Origin: Flavobacteriales bacterium
GTDB taxonomy: Bacteria > Bacteroidota > Bacteroidia > Flavobacteriales_F > PHOS-HE28
NCBI GenBank assembly: GCA_031371785.1
Contig: JANMKC010000190.1
Coordinates: forward strand, 1-55,754
Direction: 5' to 3'
Length of the DNA: 55,754 bases
Made by a program: the position numbers and the translations under genes. The notes under the pieces were generated by a model. The model was not told the DNA's origin. It saw only the letters and a program-made list of their open reading frames with translations, and did not search any database. Position 1 is the stretch's first letter. Every line of letters begins with the position of its first letter. This document shows, in pieces, positions 3,935 through 41,773 of this stretch.

Positions 3935-4077
3935 GTTCGATGCGTTGGGGCGATCCCTGGATGAAGCTCCGGGTGCGTTACCATGCGAGCGCCCAAAACT
4001 ACCCGCCTGGGCGGTCGCGAACATCCGGCCCAACCTCCGCGTATTAACAGCCGCTTCGCAAAAAACCGAACTCCAAC

Positions 4078-6114
4078 ATGGACCTCCGCGCGTTCCTCTC
4101 CCCCGCGTCGTTGCTGATCCCCGCACTGTTGCTGGCCCAAGCCGCCGAGCAACGCACCGACACGCCCTTCGACAAGGAGCACTTCGCCAATGCCAATGGG
4201 CTGAAGAAAGCACTGTCCGCCATCAAGCAAGGGGATGCCCTGTTCCAGAACGGTGGCACGCACTATACCGAAGCGCTCGAGCAATACGACCAAGCATACA
4301 CCCTCAACCCCGACAATGCCGAGCTGAATTTGAAGATGGGCCTGTGCCACCTCAATGGCCGTTACCATTACAAAGCGGTCGGCTTCTTCCAGAACGCGTA
4401 CGCGCTGCAACCCAGCATACCCCGCATCCACTTCCTCCTCGGCTATGGCTACCAGCTCACCGCCGAATGGGACAAGGCGATCGCGGAGTATGGCCTGCAC
4501 CGCGCCTCGATGGGCCGCGCCGCACCGGATCCCGAACCGATGTACAACAGCGCCGACCGGCGCATCGCCGAGTGCAACAATGGCAAAGCCTTCTATGCGA
4601 AACCGACTTCCGGCCAGGTCAGCAACATGGGGCCGGCCATCAACAGCGAAGTGGCCGATTACGGCGTGCTGATCACCGCCGATGGTGAGCACATGATGTT
4701 CACCAGCCGCCGCAACAACAGCACCGGTGGGAAGATCAACAAGGCCACGCACGAGTACTTCGAAGACATCTATGCCTGCGATCGTGCCGCTTCGGGCTGG
4801 ACCGAACCCCTGCCCATGGCGCAGCCGGTGAATTCGCCCATCAATGATGCCTCTGTGGGCCTCTTCAACGACGGCCGTACCATGATCGTGTACCGCGACG
4901 TTGACGGCACGGGCGATCTGTTCGAAACCAAGCGCGAAGGCGATATATGGAGCGAACCCGTCACCTTGGGCGGCAATGTGAATTCCGGAGCCAACGAGAG
5001 CAGTGCCTGGTACAGTTTCGACCGCAAGCAACTCTTCTTCGTGAGCGACCGCGAAGGCGGGCAGGGCGGCCAAGACATTTATGTGAGCCGCTGGGATGAT
5101 GTGGACAAGCAATGGGGCATCGCGGAGAATCTCGGAGCGACCATCAATACGCCGGAAGATGAGGATGGCGTATTCATACACCCCGATGGAAAGACCCTCT
5201 ATTTCAGCAGCAAGGGCCACAACTGCATGGGGGGCTACGATGTGTTCAAGAGCACCCTTGCGGACGGTCATTGGTCCAAACCGGAAAACCTCGGCTGGCC
5301 GATCAATTCGCCCGACGACGATCTCTTCTTCGTGCTCACCGCGGACGGCAGCACCGGTTACTTCAGCAGCGTACGCCCCAGCGGGATGGGCGAGGATGAC
5401 ATCTATCGCGTGGATTTCCTGCCGGAAACAAAAGGCGAGGAAACGGCCTCGCTCACCACCACAGGAAAACCGGCCAAGGAGAATACGAACGCCATGAGGA
5501 CCGTGCTCCTGAAGGGGCGCATCATGGACCTGAAGATGCTCGCCGGCATGGAGGCCACCATCGAACTGATGGACCTGCAGGATGCCCATCTCGTGGCCAC
5601 CTTCACCAGCGATGCCAAGACCGGTGAGTTCATGGCCGCATTGCCGAGCGGGCACGACTATGCCATGAGCATTCATGCCGACGGTTTCCTTTTGCACTCC
5701 GAGAACATCAGCATGCCTGCCGATGGCGGATCACTGGAGATGAACATGAACATCACCTTGCAACCGATCGAGACCGGCCATCAGGAAGTGATGCGCAACA
5801 TCTTTTTCGAGCGCGACCTGGCCGCACTGAACCCCACCTCGCTCGCCGAAATGGGCCAGCTACTAAGCTTGTTGCGAGAGAACCCCAAGCTGCGACTCGA
5901 GATCGGCGGCCACACGGACAGCGATGGCACGGTTGAACACAATGACCAGCTGAGCAATGCCCGCGCACAGGCCGTGGTCGATCACTTGATCGCCAATGGT
6001 ATCGCACCCGATCGGCTGCAGGCCAAGGGCTATGGATCCAATCAAGGACTGGTGGCCAATGATACCGAGGAGCATAAGGCGCAGAACCGACGGACGGAGA
6101 TGCGCGTGCTCTAG
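4078..6114 (+). CDS. TPR + PD40 beta-propeller + OmpA domain protein (PorE-like)
   Basis: Signal peptide, TPR-like N-terminus, repeated NLGxxINS/T...FxS units, and C-terminal GHTDSDG...NDQLSNARAQAV...GYG...NRRTE OmpA motif. Confidence 0.88.
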   Translation: MDLRAFLSPASLLIPALLLAQAAEQRTDTPFDKEHFANANGLKKALSAIKQGDALFQNGGTHYTEALEQYDQAYTLNPDNAELNLKMGLCHLNGRYHYKAVGFFQNAYALQPSIPRIHFLLGYGYQLTAEWDKAIAEYGLHRASMGRAAPDPEPMYNSADRRIAECNNGKAFYAKPTSGQVSNMGPAINSEVADYGVLITADGEHMMFTSRRNNSTGGKINKATHEYFEDIYACDRAASGWTEPLPMAQPVNSPINDASVGLFNDGRTMIVYRDVDGTGDLFETKREGDIWSEPVTLGGNVNSGANESSAWYSFDRKQLFFVSDREGGQGGQDIYVSRWDDVDKQWGIAENLGATINTPEDEDGVFIHPDGKTLYFSSKGHNCMGGYDVFKSTLADGHWSKPENLGWPINSPDDDLFFVLTADGSTGYFSSVRPSGMGEDDIYRVDFLPETKGEETASLTTTGKPAKENTNAMRTVLLKGRIMDLKMLAGMEATIELMDLQDAHLVATFTSDAKTGEFMAALPSGHDYAMSIHADGFLLHSENISMPADGGSLEMNMNITLQPIETGHQEVMRNIFFERDLAALNPTSLAEMGQLLSLLRENPKLRLEIGGHTDSDGTVEHNDQLSNARAQAVVDHLIANGIAPDRLQAKGYGSNQGLVANDTEEHKAQNRRTEMRVL

Positions 6115-13967: not shown

Positions 13968-14206
13968 GGCTGGCAACCGAAGTCACTCAAAGATGATCCA
14001 GAATGTTCATTGCAACGTCCGGCGTGAGGTTATCGACTGGAGCGTCGAACCGAATCCCTACTGGCCCCCATCTGACACGAGTCTTCCGGTAACCTCGGCA
14101 CGGGAGTCAGGCCAGTTCGATAATATTCACGTGGTCCGCCGTCCTCCGTGCCTACGCTACTGGCGATGGAAGAGGGCGAAAGGGATGGCGGGGTCTGTGA
14201 CCCCAA

Positions 14207-14401
14207 CGATCCGCGGTCGAACGGGAGATCACCTCGCGCATGTCCTTCTCCAGGATACTGCGGGTCTTCACCTTGATCCTCCGAATGCTTTCCGAATGAT
14301 CGGCCACCGCGCGCTTGACCAACGGGTCGGACATCTCCCCTTCGATGCCGATCCAGTCCTTCAAGTGTTGGTTGGCCACGTCGAAGACCTCCTTGAGGTT
14401 C
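14207..14401 (-). pseudogene. 195-bp duplicate of the 3' half of the 14850-15281 gene
   Basis: Direct repeat of 14866-15060 with 9 substitutions and no indels. Confidence 0.85.
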
Positions 14402-14505
14402 TCCCTTTCCGGCGCTCGGCAATCCATTCCTCTGGTGCGCGCCGAGCGCCGCGAAGTTCTTCGGCCTCTTCCCCCTCCCCAACCAGCGGGCTTTTGTCCG
14501 CCGGA

Positions 14506-14841
14506 CTAAGCTGAGCCTTGCCCGAACACCACCGCGTTGATCTCGCGTAGCAACCGCTTGAACGCTGCTGGCTTCATCTTCTGCCGGTCCGGCGATACGT
14601 TGTCCGCAGGAAATCCACCGACCATGTGCAGGCGGACCTCGCATCGCTTGGACATCGGTGGTTCCACCATGTCGCTCGTCAGAGGGAAAGAGAATTCATC
14701 GTTCCAGTCGATCGTGGAGATCATCACGCACACTACCCAATCATCGTTGCCTTCATCCACGCTGAGGACAACAGCCGGATGTGGATGCGCCGAAACCGGA
14801 TAGCGAACGGTAACGATCTGTCGCTGCTCGATCCGGGCCAT
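14506..14841 (-). CDS. PemK/MazF-like toxin
   Basis: 111 aa; QRQIVTVRYP...HPAVVLS...VVCVMIST pattern and C-terminal helix match the MazF fold, with His in place of the usual Arg in RPAVV. Confidence 0.65.
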   Translation of the reverse strand: MARIEQRQIVTVRYPVSAHPHPAVVLSVDEGNDDWVVCVMISTIDWNDEFSFPLTSDMVEPPMSKRCEVRLHMVGGFPADNVSPDRQKMKPAAFKRLLREINAVVFGQGSA

Positions 14842-14849
14842 TGCGTCGG

Positions 14850-15281
14850 CTATCGCTTGGAAATGCGATCCGCGGTCGACCGGGAGATCACCTCGCGCAT
14901 GTCCTTCTCCAAAATGCTGCGGGTCTTCACCTTGATCCTCCGGATGCTTTCCGAATGATCGGCCACCGCGCGCCTGACCAACGGGTCGGACATCTCCCCT
15001 TCAATGCCGACCCAGTCCTTCAGGTGTTGGTTGGCCACGTCGAAGACCTCCTTGAGGTTCGCCGGGTCGAGCGAATCAAGAAATACAAGAAAGGCGGTGT
15101 TGCGATGCGTGTACGTCTCCACCAGCTTGGCGACATGCGCCCAACTTGGTGACATTCGGGGTGCTTTGTTCTTCCTCGCGATGATGGGGCGCAGGAAGGA
15201 GCCAACGACATCATCCCCCGCGAAGATCACGCGGTCGCGTACGATCCTCGATCGCTTAAGTGTGGTGTGGGGTAACGGCAT
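14850..15281 (-). CDS. hypothetical protein, putative antitoxin partner
   Basis: 143 aa from MPLPHTT; ends 8 nt before the MazF-like start; its duplicated half diverged mainly at synonymous sites, which supports this frame being coding. Confidence 0.6.
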   Translation of the reverse strand: MPLPHTTLKRSRIVRDRVIFAGDDVVGSFLRPIIARKNKAPRMSPSWAHVAKLVETYTHRNTAFLVFLDSLDPANLKEVFDVANQHLKDWVGIEGEMSDPLVRRAVADHSESIRRIKVKTRSILEKDMREVISRSTADRISKR

Positions 15282-15387
15282 GAAGTGGTCCCGCGAATGT
15301 ACTGTCTCGTGCCCTTCAACGCGCGACGCGATCCGCCAGTTCGGTACCCTCAAAGTTCGTTACCACTTGCGGGATACATTGCGTTGC

Positions 15388-21648: not shown

Positions 21649-22455
21649 ATGGCATTCAACAACCTTCTTATCACCGATGATGGCGGCGTCCGCACCATCA
21701 CCATCAACCGGCCACAACAGCTCAACGCGCTCAACCGCGAGACCATCGCGGAATTCGACAGCGCGTTGAACGAAGCCGATGCGGACAAGAGCGTGCGCGT
21801 GCTCATCATCACCGGCAGCGGACCGAAGGCCTTCGTCGCGGGTGCAGACATCAAGGAGTTCGCGCACTTCGCTGTGGAAGAAGGCAAAGCCTTGAGCGCC
21901 GATGGCCAGAAGAAGCTCTTCGATCATGTGGAGCGCATGAGCAAACCGGTGATCGCCGCGGTGAACGGCTTCGCGCTCGGGGGCGGACTGGAACTGGCGA
22001 TGAGCTGCCACATCCGCGTAGCGAGCGACAACGCACGCATGGGCCTACCGGAAGTCTCGCTCGGCGTGATCCCGGGCTACGGCGGCACACAACGCCTGGC
22101 GCGACTGGTGGGCAAGGGCAAGGCGATGGAGATGATCTTCACCGCAGGCATGATCAAAGCCGACGAGGCCCTGCAATGGGGGCTCGTGAACCACGTTGTA
22201 GCACAGGCCGCAGGTCCCGGCGAAGTCGGGAACCAGTTGCTCGCCAAGTGCAATGAACTCGCCGCCGCCATCATGAAGAACTCACCTACCGCTCTCGCTG
22301 CCGCCATCCGCGCGGTGAACGCCGGTTACGAGCCGGGTGCCGATGGCCTGCAACGCGAGATCGAGGAGTTCGGTAAGCTCTTCGGCACGGCGGACTTCAA
22401 GGAGGGCACGAGCGCGTTCATGGAAAAGCGGGCGGCGAATTTCAGTGGACAGTAG
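21649..22455 (+). CDS. enoyl-CoA hydratase/isomerase (crotonase family)
   Basis: INRPQQLNAL, AFVAGADI, KPVIAAVNGFALGGGLELA, PEVSLGVIPGYGGTQRL. Confidence 0.95.
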   Translation: MAFNNLLITDDGGVRTITINRPQQLNALNRETIAEFDSALNEADADKSVRVLIITGSGPKAFVAGADIKEFAHFAVEEGKALSADGQKKLFDHVERMSKPVIAAVNGFALGGGLELAMSCHIRVASDNARMGLPEVSLGVIPGYGGTQRLARLVGKGKAMEMIFTAGMIKADEALQWGLVNHVVAQAAGPGEVGNQLLAKCNELAAAIMKNSPTALAAAIRAVNAGYEPGADGLQREIEEFGKLFGTADFKEGTSAFMEKRAANFSGQ

Positions 22456-22459
22456 CGGG

Positions 22460-22987
22460 ATGGATCCTGTAGAGAAGGTCTTCAAACTTCGGGTGGATCG
22501 TGGTTATATGGTTCCCGGAGGGCTGCTGGTTCTACTCTTGGGTTTGGGAATTTGCTACTTCGGCCTGCGGGGGGTCTTGCCCAAACCCCATTTTCGTTTC
22601 AATGACTATGTGACCATGTTTTTCTGCTTCGCGGTCGGCATCTTGTTTTGCATCGCTTACATGTTCCGTTTGTTCATCGTGAGCTTCAATGAAATCTCTT
22701 TGGATCTTGAGACCCGACGTATCGACGTGCATCCTCTTCTCGGCGGATCCTTCTCGTATCTGTCGAACGAACTGATCGGCTATAGCAACTCCACGGCGCA
22801 ATTCAGTGGAACAGGCAACAGTGGCCTTATCCTCTATTTTCCATCCGGCAAACATGTGGAGGTCTATGAATATTCGCATCAAGGGGTTGCTCGCTTCAAA
22901 GCACTATTGAAGCATCAGAAGGTCAAGTGTCTCGGCTCTGAGCTTTCGTGGTGCTTATTCCTGCGCTACAGTTTCGATCCCAAGTGA
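22460..22987 (+). CDS. cassette 1: 2-TM membrane protein with soluble beta-rich C-domain
   Basis: ATG 4 nt after the hydratase stop; paralogous to 23106-23618; stop overlaps the repeat R1 start (GTGA). Confidence 0.75.
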   Translation: MDPVEKVFKLRVDRGYMVPGGLLVLLLGLGICYFGLRGVLPKPHFRFNDYVTMFFCFAVGILFCIAYMFRLFIVSFNEISLDLETRRIDVHPLLGGSFSYLSNELIGYSNSTAQFSGTGNSGLILYFPSGKHVEVYEYSHQGVARFKALLKHQKVKCLGSELSWCLFLRYSFDPK

Positions 22988-23109
22988 GCATCCTCCGCAA
23001 ATTCGCCGACCAAACGGCCATCTATGGGTTGAGCAGCATCGTTGCGCGCTTCCTCGATCATCTGTTCGCCCCGCTCCATACGAACAAGGGTGTGAGTTCC
23101 GCGAGATGA
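22984..23109 (+). pseudogene. R1: flippase 5' remnant forming a 41-aa leader ORF
   Basis: First 72 nt match the flippase start (24644) at 67/72; translates MSILRKFADQTAIYGLSSIVARFLDHLFAPLHTNKGVSSAR*; stop overlaps ATG 23106. Confidence 0.9.
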
Positions 23110-23618
23110 GCAAGACGGCATTCACCCTTGCTCCGAACAAATTCAACCTTGGCTATTGTTGGCTCTTCTTCATTGCCCTTGCCGCCGTATCAGTCGCGCT
23201 GCTGCTGTGGCTACTACAGGGAGTGGAGGCCAAGAAGCTTCCAGCGATGCTCCTGTTGACAAGCATGATCGGGCTGCTCGCTGCCCAAGCGGGCTTGATC
23301 GTCCTGCGTCATCCATATCGACTGTCCTTGGATCACAGTACAGGGGATCTCCTTGGTACACGACCCTTTGGCGGTCCGCTGCGATTCAATGCGGCCGAGT
23401 TGCAGGGGTTCAGCAAAGCGCATGTTTGGATGGATGAGGAACATCACAAAGTGGTCATCCTTTATTTCAAGGATGGTCGGAAGATCGAGTTCTGCGAATT
23501 CATCGTTCGACCTATCGAAGCATTGTCCTTCTTCCTGAAACAGCGGAATGTGCCGCACTTCGGGGAAGAGCGTTCGTGGTTCCCGTTCAAGAAGATCAAG
23601 TACCGGTTCGACAAGTGA
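23106..23618 (+). CDS. cassette 2: 2-TM membrane protein, paralog of cassette 1
   Basis: 170 aa; shares SLD..T, GG, EL.G.S, ILYF..G, E.SW and Y.FD motifs with cassette 1. Confidence 0.75.
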   Translation: MSKTAFTLAPNKFNLGYCWLFFIALAAVSVALLLWLLQGVEAKKLPAMLLLTSMIGLLAAQAGLIVLRHPYRLSLDHSTGDLLGTRPFGGPLRFNAAELQGFSKAHVWMDEEHHKVVILYFKDGRKIEFCEFIVRPIEALSFFLKQRNVPHFGEERSWFPFKKIKYRFDK

Positions 23619-23710
23619 GCGTCCTCCGCAAACTCGCCGGGCAAACGGCCATCGACTCCCTGATCAAACCAATGTACCAACACATGGTATATTCGTGCTG
23701 CTTTCCCTGA
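23615..23710 (+). pseudogene. R2: flippase 5' remnant forming a 31-aa leader ORF
   Basis: First 39 nt match the flippase start at 38/39; MSVLRKLAGQTAIDSLIKPMYQHMVYSCCFP* stops 3 nt before the parD ATG. Confidence 0.9.
23675..23695 (+). promoter_or_regulatory. putative parDE operator and -7 promoter
   Basis: TACCA-N5-TGGTA palindrome overlapping TATATTCG, a TAnnTT(T/C)G element. Confidence 0.55.
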
Positions 23711-23713
23711 GCA

Positions 23714-23965
23714 ATGAGCAAAAACACATCCATCCTCCTGGGCGATCACTTCGAAGCCTTCGTGGCCAGGCAACTGAAGTCAGGCAAGTTCACCTCCGTA
23801 AGCGAAGTGATCCGCGCGGCCTTGCGGTTGTTCGAGGTCGAGGAATCAAAGAACGAAAGCCTCATCAAGGAGCTCAAGAAGGGCGAACGGTCGGGCTTCG
23901 TTCTTGACTTCGAACGCAACGACTTTCTGGCCGGTCTGCACCGCAAGCATGGCCGCAAGGCATGA
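23714..23965 (+). CDS. parD: ParD family antitoxin (RHH)
   Basis: KNTSILLGDHFEAFV...SGKF.SVSEVIRAALRLFE...GERSG. Confidence 0.9.
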   Translation: MSKNTSILLGDHFEAFVARQLKSGKFTSVSEVIRAALRLFEVEESKNESLIKELKKGERSGFVLDFERNDFLAGLHRKHGRKA

Positions 23966-24261
23966 AGCTGAATGTAAGGCGGGCCGCGACCGATGACCTG
24001 AAAAGCATCTGGCTGTACACGGCCGAGCATTGGTCCGTGGAACAGGCCGACCTGTACGTCAACCTGATCCTGGACGGATTCGATCATGTCCTGCGTGATC
24101 CAAGTGCTGGCAAGGACTTCGGGCATGTGCGGGAGGGCTACTTCGGCCTGAAGGTTGGATCACACCTGATCTTCTATCGGCAAGATGGAGTGGCCACCGC
24201 CATCGAGATCATCAGGGTGCTGCATGGACGCATGGACATAGAGGAGCGATTGAACCGATGA
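23962..24261 (+). CDS. parE: RelE/ParE family toxin
   Basis: AATDDLKSIWLYTAEHWS.EQAD.Y, HLIFYR, IEIIRVLHGRMD; ATGA overlap with parD. Confidence 0.9.
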   Translation: MKLNVRRAATDDLKSIWLYTAEHWSVEQADLYVNLILDGFDHVLRDPSAGKDFGHVREGYFGLKVGSHLIFYRQDGVATAIEIIRVLHGRMDIEERLNR

Positions 24262-24647
24262 GCATCCTCCGCAAACTCGCCGGGCAAACGGCCATCTATG
24301 GGATGAGCATCTCATGTTGTGTTGCGCTGTTGAGCGCTTGTTCCCTCTTCTTCGAAAAGAAGATCGAAGGCGATTGGACGGTGCATCGTCAGTCGCCACA
24401 GAGCGAAGGTGAACTGCAATTCATGGCAGGAGACTCGTTCGCCCTTGGGCCGGGACCGCACACTCCGCCGATCGATCCGCTCTCCCTTCCCTTGTCATCG
24501 CGCGGTACCTATCAGTTGTCCGGTGATTCGATCCAGTTCAACTCGGTTGGTGGGCGTATGAGCTTCAGGATCCGATGGCTCAACAAGGATCTCATCTCGT
24601 TGCGTGGTGATCGCGCCTACCTCGCACTATCGCGAAAAACCAAGTGA
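24258..24647 (+). CDS. cassette 4: lipocalin-like lipoprotein whose first ~17 codons are flippase remnant R3
   Basis: 24258-24309 match the flippase start at 49/52; continues in frame to lipobox LSAC, KKIEGDW and GTYQLSGD. Confidence 0.75.
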   Translation: MSILRKLAGQTAIYGMSISCCVALLSACSLFFEKKIEGDWTVHRQSPQSEGELQFMAGDSFALGPGPHTPPIDPLSLPLSSRGTYQLSGDSIQFNSVGGRMSFRIRWLNKDLISLRGDRAYLALSRKTK

Positions 24648-26182
24648 GCATCCTCCGCAAACTCGCCGGGCAAACGGCCATCTACGGGCTGAGCAGCATC
24701 GTTGCGCGCTTCCTCAACTACCTATTGCTGCCGCTCTACACGAGCGTGTTCCTGCCAGCGGAGTATGGCATCATCACCGCGCTCTATGCGCCGACGGCCT
24801 TCATGAACGTGGTGCTCACCTACGCGATGGAGACCACCTTCTTCCGCTATGCGAGCAGGGACCCTCATCCCCCGACCCCTTCTCCCGGGGAGAAGGGGAG
24901 CGAAGCTGTACGCGTCTACTCCACTGCTGTCTACGCGCTCACCATTTCCTCTTCGCTCTTCATGTTGCTGGGCTGCGTATTCGCGCAGGGCATCGCTGAC
25001 TTCCTCGGCTTTCCCACGCACACCAACATGGTGATCATGCTGGTGTTGATCATCGGCATCGACGCCATCACCGCTGTGCCGATGGCCCGGCTGCGGCAGC
25101 AGAACCGGCCGTGGAAGTTCGCCAGCATCAATGCGATGACCGTCGGCGTGAACATCGTCCTCAACCTCTTCGTGCTGCTCTACTGCATGCCGAAATACAA
25201 CGCAGGCCAACACAATGCGCTGATCGATGCGGTGTACGACCCGGCCCTCGGCGTGGGCTATGTCTTCTTCATCAACCTGATCAGCAGCGGCGTGAAGCTC
25301 CTGATGCTCCTACCGCAGTGGCCGCCTGTTCGGCTGCGCACCGGGCCGGACTATTTCTTCGGGATCGACAAGCAGTTGCTGCGGCCCATGCTGGTGTTCG
25401 CCACACCGCTCATGATCGCGGGCCTCGCCGGCATGGTGAACGAAACAGCGGACCGCATCCTGATGAAACACCTGCTGCCCGCGAACATCGCGGACACGCA
25501 GCTCGGCATCTACGGCGCGTGCTACAAACTGGCGATGCTGATCACCCTTTTCAGCCAGGCCTACCGGTTCGCGGCCGAGCCTTTCTTCTTCAGCCACGCC
25601 AAGGAAAAGGACAGCAAACACACCTTCGCGCACCTGATGAACGTGTTCGTGGCCGTGTGCATGGGCGCCTTCCTGCTGGTGATGCTCTTCCTCGACGTGT
25701 TCAAGCACTTCATCCCCAACCCCGCCTATTGGCCGGGCCTGCGCGTGGTGCCGATCCTGATGCTCGCCAATGTGTTCCTCGCCATCTACATCAACCAGGG
25801 CGTGTGGTACAAGCTGAGCGATCGCACGCGCGCCGGTGGAACCATCGCGCTCATCGGCGCTGCCATCACACTTGTGCTGCTCTTTTGGTGGATCCCGCTC
25901 TGGGGCTACATGGGCGCGGCCTGGGCCACGCTGGTGTGCTATGCGAGCATGGCCATCATCAGCTACGTGTGGGGGCAGAAGCACTATCCCATTCCGTACA
26001 ACCTCGTGCGCGTGTTGGGCTATATGGCCTTCGGTGTGGTGGCGTGGTGGGTGTGTGAGCAGTTGCCGTTGGAAGGAGTGATGAAGTATGCGGTGAGGGC
26101 GGTGGTGTTCTCTGGGTACTTGGGGTTGGTTTGGAGGGTGGAAGGGGCGAGAAGACCTACGAAGGATACGGCGCTGCAATAG
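24644..26182 (+). CDS. polysaccharide biosynthesis flippase (MOP/Wzx family)
   Basis: 512 aa, about 12-14 TM; LAGQTAIYGLSSI, YG....Y, METTFFRY, DRIL, GIYGACYKLA, YRFAAEPFFF. Confidence 0.9.
   Translation: MSILRKLAGQTAIYGLSSIVARFLNYLLLPLYTSVFLPAEYGIITALYAPTAFMNVVLTYAMETTFFRYASRDPHPPTPSPGEKGSEAVRVYSTAVYALTISSSLFMLLGCVFAQGIADFLGFPTHTNMVIMLVLIIGIDAITAVPMARLRQQNRPWKFASINAMTVGVNIVLNLFVLLYCMPKYNAGQHNALIDAVYDPALGVGYVFFINLISSGVKLLMLLPQWPPVRLRTGPDYFFGIDKQLLRPMLVFATPLMIAGLAGMVNETADRILMKHLLPANIADTQLGIYGACYKLAMLITLFSQAYRFAAEPFFFSHAKEKDSKHTFAHLMNVFVAVCMGAFLLVMLFLDVFKHFIPNPAYWPGLRVVPILMLANVFLAIYINQGVWYKLSDRTRAGGTIALIGAAITLVLLFWWIPLWGYMGAAWATLVCYASMAIISYVWGQKHYPIPYNLVRVLGYMAFGVVAWWVCEQLPLEGVMKYAVRAVVFSGYLGLVWRVEGARRPTKDTALQ
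24862..24900. repeat. REP-like palindrome inserted in frame in the flippase
   Basis: CCCTCATCCCCCGA then perfect 11-bp inverted repeat CCCCTTCTCCC-G-GGGAGAAGGGG; encodes PHPPTPSPGEKG. Confidence 0.75.
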
Positions 26183-26193
26183 ATGCACTTGTG

Positions 26194-27174
26194 ATGAGGA
26201 TCGTTGCCTACATCTCACTCTTGCTTATCTCCTGCTCAGGCGTTGCCCAAGAGCCCGACACACTGCGAACTGATTCGTCCATGGTCGTGACGACTGAATA
26301 TCCAGGAGGTGTTGAAGTACGGGAATTGATGAGGGCCAAGAACCTCATCTACTACCGCTTCTACTATCAAGGCTCGAAGGTCATTCACGAAACTGCTACC
26401 TACGATACACTGGGTAGGCGAATTGGAATTGGCAACGAGTTCGATGAGAAGGGACGGCTGGAGTTCACCAAGGACTATGACCGAGGCATTTGGACAGTGG
26501 TGAATGTGAAACGGCATCGATACGGCAAGCTCCAAGACCGGATGCGCGCAAAGGGAGACAGCTTGATCAAGGCGATCTATGGCTTGGAGTTCTTCAGCAA
26601 GAATGTCGTTTGGTGCATTGATGGGTCATACATGTACAATTCAGATCAGCAAGGCGATTGGGATGATGTATTCTCGAAGGAGCCGAAAAAATTCCTGCTC
26701 CGATACAACATCAAATTCGATGGCACGCATGTCTATGATGAGATGATCGAGTTCGAGCTGGACTCCGTTGGCAAGTTCATTCCGGACCCGTACGAGAGCA
26801 TCTATGGCTTCGAACAACTTCCAGACTCGGCCGACAAGGTTTTCAAACTCACTCATGCGATGGCCTTGGATATTTCGAGGCAGCATGGTCTGGTTGAAAC
26901 CGACACCACTCGCGCCGAAGCGTTCCTGAAATGGGAAGGACTTCGAACACATTCGCTCTACAACGGCCACTTCCGGTTCTATGTGACCCAACGGATAGGT
27001 TCCGATGTTGTGCGTGGTGCTAGGCCAAATCATTTTACTCGAACGAACCACTATCGCGTATGGGTCTTTAATCCCTGGTCCGGAGAGTTCATCGATGAAA
27101 AGAAGATGGACCAAGAGACCACTTGGGAAGGAGCTGGCGGGTATTCCACGGGGCTTTTCGCACCAAGCAAGTAG
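26194..27174 (+). CDS. hypothetical exported protein (accessory)
   Basis: Signal-like [19 protein letters not shown]; aromatic and acidic rich; more AT-rich than the flanks. Confidence 0.7.
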
Positions 27175-27260: not shown

Positions 27261-27389
27261 ATGTCCACCGTCTCAACTCTGCTCGAAACGACGACCATCC
27301 GCATCGTCAACAAGAGCAAGCACTCGCTCCCTTCCTACGCCACCGAGCATAGCGCCGGAATGGACCTGCGCGCCAACCGCTACTTTTGA
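27261..27389 (+). pseudogene. truncated dut 5' remnant
   Basis: [42 protein letters not shown]; 27298-27378 matches 28076-28156 at 76/81. Confidence 0.9.
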
Positions 27390-27395
27390 AGCACT

Positions 27396-27608
27396 ATGGC
27401 AGTGAAAGTGACGCGTAGCAAGAACGATGAGGTGGTGATCACCTTGTCCGGTGGTATCGAACCCGACGCGTTGCAGCGCGCGCTCGACTACCTCCGCTAT
27501 CTCGACCTTACAAAGGGAATGAAGGTGCCGCAAGCCGAGGTGGACAAGTTGGCCCGCGAGGTGAACGCCAGCATGGCCCGCAAACGCCGCAAGCGCGTCG
27601 CTTCGTGA
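27396..27608 (+). CDS. putative antitoxin
   Basis: 70 aa, GTGA-coupled to the PIN gene, preceded by a perfect TACTTTTG -7 element (27381-27388). Confidence 0.7.
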   Translation: MAVKVTRSKNDEVVITLSGGIEPDALQRALDYLRYLDLTKGMKVPQAEVDKLAREVNASMARKRRKRVAS

Positions 27609-28048
27609 AGCTGGTTGTAGACGCCAACATTGTGTTCAGCAGTCTGCTCCGGTCGGACAGCATTGTGGGTGATGTGTTCTTCAACTCGCACCCGCCACTT
27701 GATCTCTATGCGCCGGAACTTCTGCGGGAAGAGATCGCGGATCATCGCGCCAAATTGCTCAAGCTCAGCAAGCGGTCATCCCATACGATGCTCGAACTGG
27801 AGATGCTCTCATTGTCACGCATCACGTTCTTGAACGAGGGACTCATATCCACTGTGAACTGGGCCAAAGCGCGTGATATGATGACAGGGCTGGATGCTGA
27901 CGATGAGAACTACGTGGCGCTCGCCATTCATCTCGGTATCCCACTTTGGACCGGGGACAAGAAGTTGCTGCTCGGACTTCGCCGGAAAAAATTCGGCCTG
28001 CTTGTTTCCACCGCTGAGATCCCCGACATGATCCGCAAAGCCCAATGA
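27605..28048 (+). CDS. PIN-domain (VapC-like) toxin
   Basis: [24 protein letters not shown] and LWTGDKKL acidic motifs. Confidence 0.88.
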
Positions 28049-28503
28049 TCGACACAACAATGGACCACATCGCGGTCCGCATCGTCAACAAGAGCAAGCA
28101 CCCGCTCCCTTCCTACGCCACCGAGCACAGCGCGGGCATGGACCTGCGTGCCAACCTTGATGCGTCGATCATTCTCTCGCCGAACCAACGCGCGCTGATC
28201 CCTACGGGCCTCTTCCTCGAACTCCCCGAAGGCACCGAAGCGCAGGTGCGGCCGCGAAGCGGACTGGCTTTCAAACATGGTATCACCGTCCTCAACGCGC
28301 CCGGTACGATCGACGCGGATTATCGTGGCGAAGTGGGCGTGCTGCTCATCAATCTGGGCACCGAACCCTTCGAGGTGAAGGACGGCGAACGCATCGCGCA
28401 ATTGGTGGTGGCGAAGTACACGCGCATCACTTTGGCGGAAACTGATGACCTTCGCGCCTCGGAACGCGGTGCAGGTGGCTTCGGCCATACCGGAACGCGC
28501 TAG
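28045..28503 (+). CDS. dut: dUTP diphosphatase
   Basis: [40 protein letters not shown]. Confidence 0.97.
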
Positions 28504-40090: not shown

Positions 40091-41062
40091 ATGAGGAACA
40101 TTCTACGCCGCACGTTCATCCCCATGATCCTGATCTCCCCGACGCTCTTGGCCCAAGTGAACATGGGCCTTGGGTTGCAAGGGTGCTATCCCTTCCATGG
40201 GAACGCCAACGACAATTCCGGGAATGGCCACAACGGCTTGGTAATCGGCGCACAGCTCACGCAGGACCGCAACGGGGCAGCGAACAGCGCCTATGCGTTC
40301 AATGGCACGGACCAACACATCGATGTGGTCGACTTCAATACGTTCGGCATCACCGACGAGGTGAGCATCGGCTTCTGGGTACGCGACCTTGGTTCCTATG
40401 GGAATTTCGCCGTGGCGCTGTGGCCTGATGATTTCTACGACAGGCTCGAATGCTCCCCGAACTACAACCACAATGGCGTGAATACCGTGTTCTGGGACTT
40501 CGGCGATGCCACCAACGGCGGCCGCACCTTTATCCAGCCGTATGACTTCGCCGCCGCTTGGCAACACTATATTTTCACTTCAAGCGCTGCCAGTGACCGC
40601 ATGCGCATCTATCACGACGGGGCGCTCCTGCTTGAAGAGAACCACCATAGTTCGTTGGTGGATGCCCAGCGCATATTGGGGTTCGGTGGCGGCGGCGATC
40701 AGGCTTACATGTATCTCAACGGCGACCTCGATGATGTGGTGATCTACGACCGCGAACTGAACGGGGAAGAAGCACAATACCTCTTCGAGCATGGCGTTGC
40801 GTGCGGCAGCGCGATCGCATCGGTACCATCGTTGGCGCCCGTTGCCCCGTCCATCCATTTCGATCCGGCGAACCGCCTGTTGTTGGTGCATGCTGAAAAC
40901 GCAGTGCGATTGGACATCGTTGATGCGAGCGGCCGGAGCGTATTGGCCCAGCACCTCGCTTCCGGCGATCATCAAGTGCCCGTGCGGGTTTCGAGCGGGG
41001 TCTACTTGGCTGTTGCGACTTCCGCCTCAGCCAGATCGACCATTCGTTTGTACGTTCCTTGA
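40091..41062 (+). CDS. LamG-like jellyroll protein with T9SS-type C-terminus
   Basis: YPFHGNANDNSGNG, DRNG..NSAYAFNG, WQH, GDLDDV.IYDREL, SGVYL. Confidence 0.82.
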   Translation: MRNILRRTFIPMILISPTLLAQVNMGLGLQGCYPFHGNANDNSGNGHNGLVIGAQLTQDRNGAANSAYAFNGTDQHIDVVDFNTFGITDEVSIGFWVRDLGSYGNFAVALWPDDFYDRLECSPNYNHNGVNTVFWDFGDATNGGRTFIQPYDFAAAWQHYIFTSSAASDRMRIYHDGALLLEENHHSSLVDAQRILGFGGGGDQAYMYLNGDLDDVVIYDRELNGEEAQYLFEHGVACGSAIASVPSLAPVAPSIHFDPANRLLLVHAENAVRLDIVDASGRSVLAQHLASGDHQVPVRVSSGVYLAVATSASARSTIRLYVP

Positions 41063-41773
41063 TCAATGCAGCACCTGCTGCAACACCTCCATTGATCGCA
41101 GTTCGCCGAAGCCGTGAACGTGCAGCCGGTAATAGACCAATAGCCGCTCGAGCAGTGAACGGCGAACGGATGCCACGATGTCACCAGTGACGTCCCCGAT
41201 GCCCGTGTCCATCAACATCGCGAAGGCCGCGCTATCCGTTCTGTCCATGCACTGCTCATGCGGCGGATCCCCGCGGAAAAAGGAACCCTCCCGCAGATCA
41301 AAACCCTCCTCGCCGGACGAAGGTGGCTCAGGGAAAAAGCCCAGGTGACGTGCGAGATGCACCAGCAACACCAGCGGGAAGTTCGACACGTTGCCGCCAT
41401 GATCCATGGCTTCGAGCACCTCCTGCGCGAAGGCGAACAGGGCCGGATCGGCGCTCTCTTCGCGCAACGTGCGGTAGAATACTTCCTGCGTGAACAGCGC
41501 GAGAGCGCCTCGTATGGGCTCGGTATGCAGATGGGTGTAAGGGCGGTCCATGCGCAACTCCCGCACTGCGTGCATCTCGCGTTCATGGGTTTCCGTCACC
41601 ACCAGTTCCAGGCGGCTCAGCGGTTGCAGTGCCGCATCACGCGCACCGCTGCGGCCGCCGGCGCGCACCATGTACGAGCGTGCGCCGAACGCCTCGGTAT
41701 ACGCCTTCAGTACCGTGCTGCGATCGCCATGCTTGAATGTGCGCAGCACGATGGCCCGCGTGGTGGAGAGCAT
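41063..41773 (-). CDS. recO: DNA repair protein RecO
   Basis: TRAIVLR, YTEAFG, LQPLS, LGFFP, YYRLH; adjacent to porZ. Confidence 0.9.
   Translation of the reverse strand: MLSTTRAIVLRTFKHGDRSTVLKAYTEAFGARSYMVRAGGRSGARDAALQPLSRLELVVTETHEREMHAVRELRMDRPYTHLHTEPIRGALALFTQEVFYRTLREESADPALFAFAQEVLEAMDHGGNVSNFPLVLLVHLARHLGFFPEPPSSGEEGFDLREGSFFRGDPPHEQCMDRTDSAAFAMLMDTGIGDVTGDIVASVRRSLLERLLVYYRLHVHGFGELRSMEVLQQVLH

Follow-up and report, generated by a model that had tools for sequence, protein, structure and literature searches.

Small accessory genes stacked between copies of a flippase gene start in an uncultured Flavobacteriales bacterium

Four flippase gene starts and the cassettes between them

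The stretch of DNA analysed here (the window, 55,754 nucleotides (nt)) is contig JANMKC010000190.1 of the Flavobacteriales assembly GCA_031371785.1, a metagenome bin of 4.3 Mb in 501 contigs that is 92% complete; the genome is labelled G000 and the contig C335. Between the genes for an enoyl-CoA hydratase and a Wzx-type polysaccharide flippase, the window contains an array of four small cassettes, each followed by a copy of the 5′ end of the flippase gene. The last copy is the intact gene, and the three partial copies are referred to as scars. The genes and other features, including the open reading frames (ORFs) and their sizes in amino acids (aa), are as follows.

21649-22455, plus strand: enoyl-CoA hydratase gene (Pfam ECH_1, E 6.5e-68), the conserved upstream anchor of the variable interval
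22460-22987, plus strand: cassette 1, ORF A, 175 aa, membrane-type, without a Pfam match; its stop is the TGA in the GTGA of scar 1
22980-23083, plus strand: scar 1, matching the flippase 5′ end over about 104 nt (85% identity)
23106-23618, plus strand: cassette 2, ORF B, 170 aa, membrane-type, without a Pfam match
23612-23656, plus strand: scar 2, matching the flippase 5′ end over about 39-45 nt, with 1 mismatch in 38
23714-24261, plus strand: cassette 3, a parDE toxin-antitoxin pair; the ParE stop is the TGA in the ATGA of scar 3
23714-23965, plus strand: ParD (Pfam ParD_antitoxin, E 8.8e-25, 87.4 bits, cut-off 21)
23962-24261, plus strand: ParE (Pfam ParE_toxin, E 4.9e-16, 59.5 bits, cut-off 23)
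24258-24309, plus strand: scar 3, matching the flippase 5′ end over 51-52 nt
24258-24647, plus strand: cassette 4, ORF of a lipoprotein-like protein (129 aa, lipobox-like LLSAC, no Pfam match), fused in frame to scar 3
24644-26182, plus strand: intact Wzx-type polysaccharide flippase gene (Pfam Polysacc_synt, E 1.2e-11), the insertion target

An earlier note, made from the letters of the window, had placed the four direct copies at 22984, 23615, 24258 and 24644, and the same sites were recovered when the window was scanned with a 38-nt start pattern allowing at most 3 mismatches. Exactly four sites were found, against none in 100 shuffles, and there was no further site in the whole 4.3-Mb assembly. 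Copies 1, 2 and 3 differ from the intact gene at 3, 1 and 0 of the 38 positions, which agrees with the claim that the most distal copy is the most diverged. The note was also right that the lengths of the matches differ, although its values (72 or more, 39 and 52 nt) had to be adjusted, most of them upwards, to 104, 45 and 51 nt. The units preceding the copies (a membrane protein, its paralogue, parDE and a lipoprotein) were as it described them when ORFs and Pfam families were scanned. ORF A and ORF B are distant paralogues (29% identity, E 1.1e-5). The ParD and ParE genes overlap by 4 nt (23962-23965) and both domains score above the curated cut-offs, as is required of a type II ParDE module; a TACCA-N5-TGGTA palindrome lies upstream of this cassette. 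Each cassette measures 0.4-0.65 kb, and ParD and ParE are the only Pfam domains found in them (transposase families were not scanned separately).

The copies also supply the stop codons of the units upstream of them. The ORFs that end at 22987, 23618, 24261 and 24647 terminate, in four of four cases, on the TGA within the NTGA of the next start, as the note had observed. From ORF A to the flippase (22460-26182) the genes form an unbroken coupled chain with six 4-nt stop/start overlaps and one 3-nt gap, in the order ORF A, GTGA, scar 1 remnant, ATGA, ORF B, GTGA, scar 2 remnant, the 3-nt gap, ParD, ATGA, ParE, ATGA, scar 3 with the lipoprotein-like ORF, GTGA, flippase. The remnants of scars 1 and 2 are open frames inside this chain; that of scar 1 has 41 codons and terminates on the ATGA of the ORF B start. 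The lipoprotein-like ORF takes its start codon and its first 15 or so codons from scar 3, that is, from an old flippase start, and its stop is the TGA in the GTGA of the intact flippase start.

The array resembles an integron in its architecture, and it had been called integron-like. The architectural part of that description stands, while attC hairpins and fixed junctions are missing: the scars end between +19 and +78 of the flippase gene, even within the ParDE family. There is no match to Phage_integrase (PF00589) on contig C335, and the only matches in the genome are on contigs C378 and C370. No match to a reverse transcriptase (RVT_1) was found in the 92%-complete assembly, and retro-mobility was set aside on this ground. 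The hairpin potential of the four repeat regions, computed for both strands, gave z values of -0.4 to +1.7 against shuffled sequences (8 of 8 strands; no dedicated attC model was used). Single-strand folds thus show no excess stability, and an attC-like structure was rejected. These results bear out the note's statement that integrase, attC and reverse transcriptase are lacking (transposases were not specifically searched). Since an IntI-type recombinase gene beside the array, attC hairpins and a fixed crossover point are all wanting, the array is not an integron.

The hydratase-flippase interval in related genomes

The flippase start is present in 97 of the 101 genomes of the family, whose members related to the window are uncultured Flavobacteriales from sludge, sediment and fresh water. 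Extra partial flippase starts on the same contig, within about 2 kb, were found in 21 genomes of the family, G000 included. Two sets of loci were compared. The unbiased set consisted of the 80 best flippase relatives, of which 69 loci include the hydratase stop and 11 have no hydratase on the locus; the larger set consisted of 96 unique loci, part of which had been chosen for showing extra copies. Hydratase and flippase are syntenic in 85 of the 96 unique related loci, and the interval between them ranges from about 10 to 2274 nt. A locus was called empty when this interval was 160 nt or less.

Among the unbiased loci with a hydratase stop, 29 of 69 were empty and 40 occupied. Scars were found in 13 of the 40 occupied loci, one scar in 8 and two in 5, and in 4 of the 11 loci without hydratase, two of which had three scars. 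At least one scar (1-3) was therefore present in 17 of the 80 unbiased loci. These counts are a lower bound: a degenerate scar in genome G055 fell below the blastn threshold. In the 96-locus set, none of the 34 empty loci had a scar, and in 8 of the 20 scarred loci the first scar lies 96-111 nt past the hydratase stop, which is the position of the native start in the empty genomes. The proposal that the old start is left behind as a scar gains support from this coincidence.

Comparison with empty loci showed the footprint of the insertions. The genome with the highest DNA identity to the window at the flippase start (G070, 92%) has an empty locus, whose single start aligns with the intact start of the window and with each of its three scars (39-104 nt). 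Locus L043 and the empty locus L047 are colinear through the hydratase, the spacer and the flippase up to +48, and colinearity resumes from -41; L043 thus contains a 492-nt insert with a target duplication of about 89 nt (-41 to +48). A search for the donor of this insert found similarity in other loci starting about 25 nt inside it.

The left ends of the scars lie between -5 and +2 in 31 of 35 cases, and the right ends of the 35 scars are spread from +19 to +78 in 23 junction classes. Nine ParDE cassettes adjoin scars that end between +24 and +53. In four genomes the duplication reaches back into the upstream spacer, by 30-76 nt (loci L026, L032, L034 and L043), so the start codon is not a fixed boundary. 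Reading the 35 junctions revealed no shared motif at the cassette ends (no formal motif search was made), except for a ParD operator-like palindrome within the ParDE cassettes. At the joint between scar 3 and the lipoprotein-like ORF of the window, the microhomology TGAGCA is common to flippase positions +47 to +52 and to the lipoprotein's own start.

The arrays of the relatives vary in content and order as well. Locus L103 has three scars and an intact start, as in the window, and L106 has two scars. In L103 the ParDE cassette is the one nearest to the flippase, in the window it is the second from it, and in L106 it is the distal one. The relatives therefore differ in occupancy, cassette order and scar number, which is what accretion at a variable interval leads one to expect, and the interval is not invariant. 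The stricter claim, that each cassette is added directly upstream of the intact gene, is not demonstrated, as ParDE takes three different positions. A direct repeat of 461 nt at 90% identity in L031 (G018, oriented positions 4059-4519 and 5558-6018) covers a whole ParD-type cassette together with the flanking flippase-start copies, so whole units can be copied inside an array. In L042 (G074:C1, about 40979-41302), two complete flippase genes stand head to head as an inverted duplication with their starts about 110 nt apart; both proteins are 58.7% identical to that of the window.

Of the 95 unique loci other than L043, 23 have a ParD(E) cassette region at the flippase. Homologues of ORF B gave 10 hits in 9 of the 101 genomes, at 22-32% identity, and all 10, including the one in G055, adjoin a flippase start or scar; none was found away from such sequences in the 101 genomes. 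The earlier note had named, as a possible refutation, cassette homologues elsewhere that are never followed by flippase starts, and for the ORF B family the outcome was the opposite. In a protein atlas, ORF B fell only into clusters of hypothetical proteins, with DUF5381 as a lead. Lipoprotein-like ORFs fused to a scar were also present in L028, L036, L038 and L045. For 7 further non-ParDE cassette ORFs from related flippase loci (and 2 alternative frames), Pfam gave nothing above the cut-off.

The same footprint at other gene ends

The note had also suggested a genome-wide search for duplicated gene termini. Self-comparison of G000 for repeat pairs of 25-260 nt with at least 84% identity and a spacing of 250-3500 nt yielded 104 direct pairs (73 loci) and 16 inverted pairs (14 loci). 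A boundary of the repeat lies at most 4 nt from a stop codon in 26 of the 104 direct pairs, compared with a mean of 5.3 and a maximum of 12 when the pairs were shifted by 30-300 nt (ORFs of at least 150 aa). In the typical layout, an intact gene end is followed by an insert of 0.4-1.9 kb and then by a copy of the last 30-240 nt of the gene; the arrangement is mirrored at gene starts. The outcome changes the picture given by the note, in which the locus was anchored on one housekeeping gene: the same footprint is found at many other gene ends of the genome. A target motif, TGATC, after the host stops was considered and dropped; it occurs in 5 of 10 TGA cases, but TC follows 20% of long TGA-ended ORFs (P = 0.034).

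The cargo was typed with Pfam on the largest ORFs of 18 chosen repeat loci. Toxin-antitoxin families were found at 10 of the 18, two of the matches being just under the Pfam cut-off (the PemK-like one and one PIN). The types are ParE at two loci, PIN at four, AbiEii with DUF6922, DUF433 with DUF5615, HepT with a nucleotidyltransferase (MNT), and PemK-like. The remaining scanned loci encode Fic, GIY-YIG, a STAND-type ATPase, a YhcG nuclease or a secretion-tail protein, or show no family. At G000:C490:12272-13363, two tandem antitoxin/ParE modules lie between the stop of a 1119-aa gene and a 48-nt copy of its end, and the stop codon of the second ParE directly adjoins the scar. A perfect direct repeat of 61 nt at G000:C489:544-1595 surrounds an ORF that, judged by eye, resembles a REP (repetitive extragenic palindrome)-associated tyrosine transposase; no other gene-end repeat locus that was seen contains a possible mobility gene. 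In genome G007, which is a single contig, a 400-kb stretch holds 2 loci of this kind, both at 3′ gene ends and one with two scars, and 0 inverted pairs. One of them (G007:C1, about 1089149-1091851) is a 546-aa gene whose 3′ end has two further copies downstream, of 157 nt (87% identity) and 65 nt (89%). Draft assembly therefore does not account for the genome-wide pattern.

Two loci of the same kind lie in the window itself.

27298-28048, plus strand: locus at the dUTPase gene (dut); an 81-nt copy of the dut 5′ end at 27298-27378 is 94% identical to 28076-28156
27396-27608, plus strand: antitoxin-like ORF of the dut locus
27605-28048, plus strand: PIN toxin of the dut locus (PIN_2, E 2.6e-25)
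14207-15063, minus strand: gene-end locus; 14207-14404 is a second copy, 95% identical, of the last 198 nt or so of a 167-aa gene (14850-15353)
14506-14841, minus strand: PemK/MazF-like toxin ORF between these copies (PemK_toxin, E 1.4e-4, just below the cut-off)

At the first of these (region 27298-28503), the stop of the PIN toxin gene lies in an ATGA, 12 nt before the likely dut start. Of 45 relatives, 22 have a spacer of 4-17 nt between flippase and dut, and 23 have one of 108-2247 nt; in the window it is 1877 nt. The flippase-dut interval is a second hypervariable slot beside the flippase gene. Scars in this interval were found in the window and in L111 only, where the duplication covers the flippase end, the spacer and dut up to +62. 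The interval of the window also contains a lipoprotein-like ORF of 347 aa without a Pfam family (26131-27174). At the other locus (minus strand, 14152-15353), the 167-aa host gene has no Pfam family and its repeat lies 659 nt downstream.

The intact copies and the scars at the gene-end loci of G000 differ at 36, 15 and 71 positions in codon positions 1, 2 and 3, respectively (n = 122), and the flippase scars across genomes show 28, 14 and 47 mismatches. Of the differing codons, 55 of 100 are synonymous, and changes from GC to AT and from AT to GC are near balance (49 and 38). Several intact/scar pairs have different stop codons or conservative variants at the end (contigs C48, C429 and C31); pairs with 100% identity also occur (C489, 61 nt; C221, 31 nt). 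Judging by these substitutions, the copies resemble alleles that were both functional during their divergence. The excess at third and synonymous positions would mean that they diverged as working alleles, one of which was imported with the cassette from another lineage. The claim that cassettes arrive with a fresh gene start, here a foreign one, therefore seems to hold.

Mechanism, alternatives and known systems

For the recombination pathway and the route by which the DNA is acquired, we propose that the array arose by repeated insertion with long target duplication, through one-ended homologous plus illegitimate recombination or through Campbell-type integration, and that the hydratase-flippase junction is a hot spot for it. 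We regard this reading as fairly probable. Small cassettes from related lineages would be added at the junction again and again without a local recombinase. A donor piece consisting of a cassette and the donor's flippase start would pair with the resident flippase, which would serve as a one-sided homology anchor, and its non-homologous end would be joined illegitimately, at microhomology, tens of bases inside the resident gene. The same topology would result if a small circle, made of a cassette and a short segment of a flippase start, integrated by a single crossover. Resident DNA would not be lost: its first 19-100 nt would stay as a scar and the gene would continue from the imported start. 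Repetition could then produce the three scars and four cassettes of the window.

Under this proposal, one boundary of each repeat would be the end of the likeness between donor and recipient, usually at a start or stop codon because the cassette lies beyond, and the other would be the variable joint. Joints inside the resident gene would be harmless because the donor supplies a complete gene end, and this may explain their survival. Once formed, a unit could spread by ordinary recombination through its two repeats. Survivors would be those that keep the flippase translated, and selection for this would favour 4-nt overlaps; it would explain both the overlap chain and the reuse of a scar as the start of a cassette ORF. 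Homology-facilitated illegitimate recombination (HFIR) was one of two routes named in the earlier note, and it is the mechanism favoured here. A ComEC homologue is present in the genome, a weak indication as 10 of 14 control genomes also have one.

Several observations weigh against this proposal. No scar was found in 27 of the 40 occupied unbiased flippase loci or in 21 of the 23 occupied flippase-dut junctions; therefore either duplication is a minority outcome or scars decay quickly. Random joining would not lead one to expect that repeat boundaries coincide exactly with stop or start codons; as an explanation we propose that the homology of diverged alleles ends at the coding boundary and that selection acts in addition. 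Homologies of 19-50 nt are short for a RecA-dependent crossover, and microhomology was seen at one joint only. No donor genome was found for any insertion event. The contigs of three sequencing runs contained no excised circles, deletion variants or repeat-repeat joints, although contigs cannot show rare forms. No Ku homologue was found in the genome, which gives no help for circularisation; Ku-dependent end joining was dropped as a route to circles, and the missing match says little, as only 1 of 14 controls has one. Finally, the excess at third positions could partly stem from a higher mutability of GC-rich third positions.

The copies could instead have been made in place, if a double-strand break or wide staggered nicks at a gene end were filled in around the cassette, so that the two copies started out identical and the scar decayed afterwards. 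The selfish module itself might cause the break, which has been proposed for restriction-modification systems, and Furuta et al. suggest, in the part of their article drawn on here, DNA breakage as a common property (PMC2853133). Direct repeats tens to hundreds of nt long, addiction-type cargo and a lack of mobility genes also mark the class that they described, and the identical pairs on C489 and C221 fit as well. Changes in a decaying scar are expected over all codon positions, whereas 71 of the 122 differences fall on third positions, 55 of 100 codons are synonymous and the base changes are nearly symmetric. The different stop codons and conservative end variants likewise speak of allelic divergence rather than of pseudogene decay. 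Most of the toxin families at these loci, ParE excepted, are known as RNases and not as DNases, which also counts against a module-provoked break. Duplication in place is therefore considered unlikely. We judge it also unlikely that a dedicated integrase-free mobility system is at work, in which selfish cassettes would be placed exactly at host start or stop codons with long duplications, chained by translation and stacked at favoured genes; the codon boundaries (26 of 104, against 5.3) would then be the signature of its mechanism.

A recombinase encoded elsewhere might move cassettes in and out, with the first 20 or so nt of the flippase gene serving as its attachment site. All scars have the first 19-23 nt or so in common, their left boundary is nearly constant, the arrays reach four copies, ORF B-type cassettes are found at the flippase site only, and tyrosine recombinases are encoded on other contigs of the genome. 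Such a system is nonetheless quite improbable, given right boundaries that vary even within one cassette family, duplications that extend into the upstream spacer in four loci, the lack of hairpin potential and a contig without integrase. In addition, the footprint occurs at more than 20 unrelated gene ends of unrelated sequence, which is beyond recognition by one recombinase.

The paralogy of ORF A and ORF B, the confinement of the ORF B family to the flippase locus and the arrangement of all genes on one strand in a coupled chain could suggest an old, vertically inherited operon that grew, without horizontal input, through gene birth and local tandem duplications of the 5′ region of the flippase gene. 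In a FastTree of 77 loci, built with the duplicated part left out, a three-state label (empty, occupied without scar, scarred) required at least 32 changes, compared with a mean of 35.4 (range 30-41) in 200 shuffles. Presence and absence are thus distributed almost at random on the tree, and cassette turnover is apparently fast relative to species divergence. These results, the differences in cassette order between genomes, and the occurrence of ParDE-type and other toxin-antitoxin modules with the same footprint at unrelated loci make a vertical origin very unlikely.

The array is probably not an assembly artefact. The stretch is contained in three public runs of one freshwater-sediment study, which may be the window's own source. 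In the contigs of these runs every cassette is joined to its flanking repeats, and each scar-to-next-cassette junction is present in 2-3 runs; one contig (22453-23651) runs from the end of the hydratase gene past ORF A, scar 1 and ORF B and stops within scar 2. Contig depth in run X1 is about equal for the cassettes (8.3-9.9) and the flanks (6.8-10.1), so the cassette depths are not fractions of the flank depths. The run contigs break within the repeats, and the order of the cassettes is without independent proof. The same scar architecture is found in the single-contig genomes G001 and G007. Although the genome is a bin of 501 contigs, copies 2-4 have 38 nearly identical bases in common and the public contigs stop inside the repeats, it is hardly credible that an assembler threaded the single cassettes of separate strains in series via the shared repeat, as the junctions recur between runs, the cassette depths equal the flank depths instead of summing to them, and the same scars are found in G001, G007 and many other assemblies. 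Contig depths and complete relatives speak against the strain-haplotype chimera that the note had named as a possible refutation (the reads being represented by contigs only).

How toxin-antitoxin and other small accessory genes move without mobility genes is poorly understood, and most documented cases of insertion with long target duplication concern restriction-modification systems. The lineage studied here offers many natural replicates, with dozens of loci per genome, a hot spot of four copies, and relatives in the empty, single and multiple states. The allele-like divergence points to recombination with foreign alleles over duplication in place, and together with the replicates it makes the mechanism directly testable. 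If the proposal is correct, ordinary recombination can build integron-like arrays, and scars reused as start codons and signal-peptide leaders would represent a visible route to new gene starts.

In the literature searched, supplementary files aside, no toxin-antitoxin modules with long target duplication were found, which is not proof of absence. Nor did we find there a description of toxin-antitoxin modules and small cassettes as main cargo, of dozens of loci per genome, of stacking at a 5′ start with scars reused as ORF starts, or of allele-like repeats. Nobusato et al. (2000) are said to have reported insertion of restriction-modification systems with long target duplication. According to the sections of Furuta, Abe and Kobayashi (2010) on which we rely, such systems insert with repeats longer than 30 bp (46-423 bp) that align to one sequence in an empty genome, without other mobile genes, mostly in naturally competent species, sometimes with gene fusion at the joints, and by a mechanism stated there to be unknown (PMC2853133); the corresponding part of Mruk and Kobayashi (2013) gives the same summary (PMC3874152). 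By the definition in those sections, direct repeats of more than 30 bp that align to one empty-site sequence were found (L043 against L047; the window scars against G070), and the inserts, of 0.4-0.65 kb, are below 20 kb and without other mobile genes (transposase families were not scanned separately). That definition also asks for both restriction and modification genes in the insert (PMC2853133). These are absent here: the cargo is ParDE, two membrane-type ORFs and a lipoprotein-like ORF, and elsewhere in the genome it consists mostly of toxin-antitoxin modules. The array is thus a variant of the long-target-duplication class and not a strict member of it.

Like the restriction-modification insertions, the array has addiction cargo, no integrase or transposase, and variable direct repeats that often overlap the end of a flanking gene. 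It differs from them in that its cargo consists of toxin-antitoxin modules and small membrane and lipoprotein genes, up to three events are stacked at one gene start, dozens of loci occur per genome, the copies are apparently diverged alleles instead of fresh duplicates, and many boundaries lie exactly at start or stop codons. In the portion of their article cited here, Kirchberger et al. (2017) proposed HFIR for stacked arrays of immunity genes and likened them to Rhs orphan strings and integrons (PMC5361080). In the orphan arrays of Rhs, contact-dependent inhibition (CDI) and type VI secretion system (T6SS) loci, as described in that portion, the incoming module uses a conserved gene segment as its anchor and displaces the older one without an integrase, as would be the case here; those arrays involve a variable 3′ toxin tip and immunity genes, whereas the array of the window involves the flippase 5′ start, with gene starts and unrelated cassettes (PMC5361080).

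As in HFIR in natural transformation, in the cited part of its description, homology would anchor the incoming DNA on one side while its other end is joined illegitimately (PMC3240628). The proposal departs from the classic experiments in that the joint would lie inside the anchored segment, which is duplicated, and nothing would be lost. Those experiments, in Acinetobacter, Streptococcus and Pseudomonas, are reported to have mostly shown loss of recipient DNA between anchor and joint. Integron cassette arrays are similar in that small, mostly single-gene cassettes pointing in one direction are separated by repeats and include a toxin-antitoxin cassette; they differ in having IntI, attI and attC hairpins, none of which the array has; its repeat is a coding-gene fragment of variable length, and its junctions are not fixed. 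Some integrative elements restore the gene end into which they insert, and derivatives lacking an integrase can be stacked beside them, as with SXT at the 5′ end of prfC and cis-mobilizable elements (CIMEs) at fda; these systems use a dedicated tyrosine recombinase with a fixed crossover core at one site. They too bring in a replacement gene end and leave att-like gene fragments upon tandem accretion, whereas in the lineage of the window the same footprint is found, with variable joints, at many unrelated sites.

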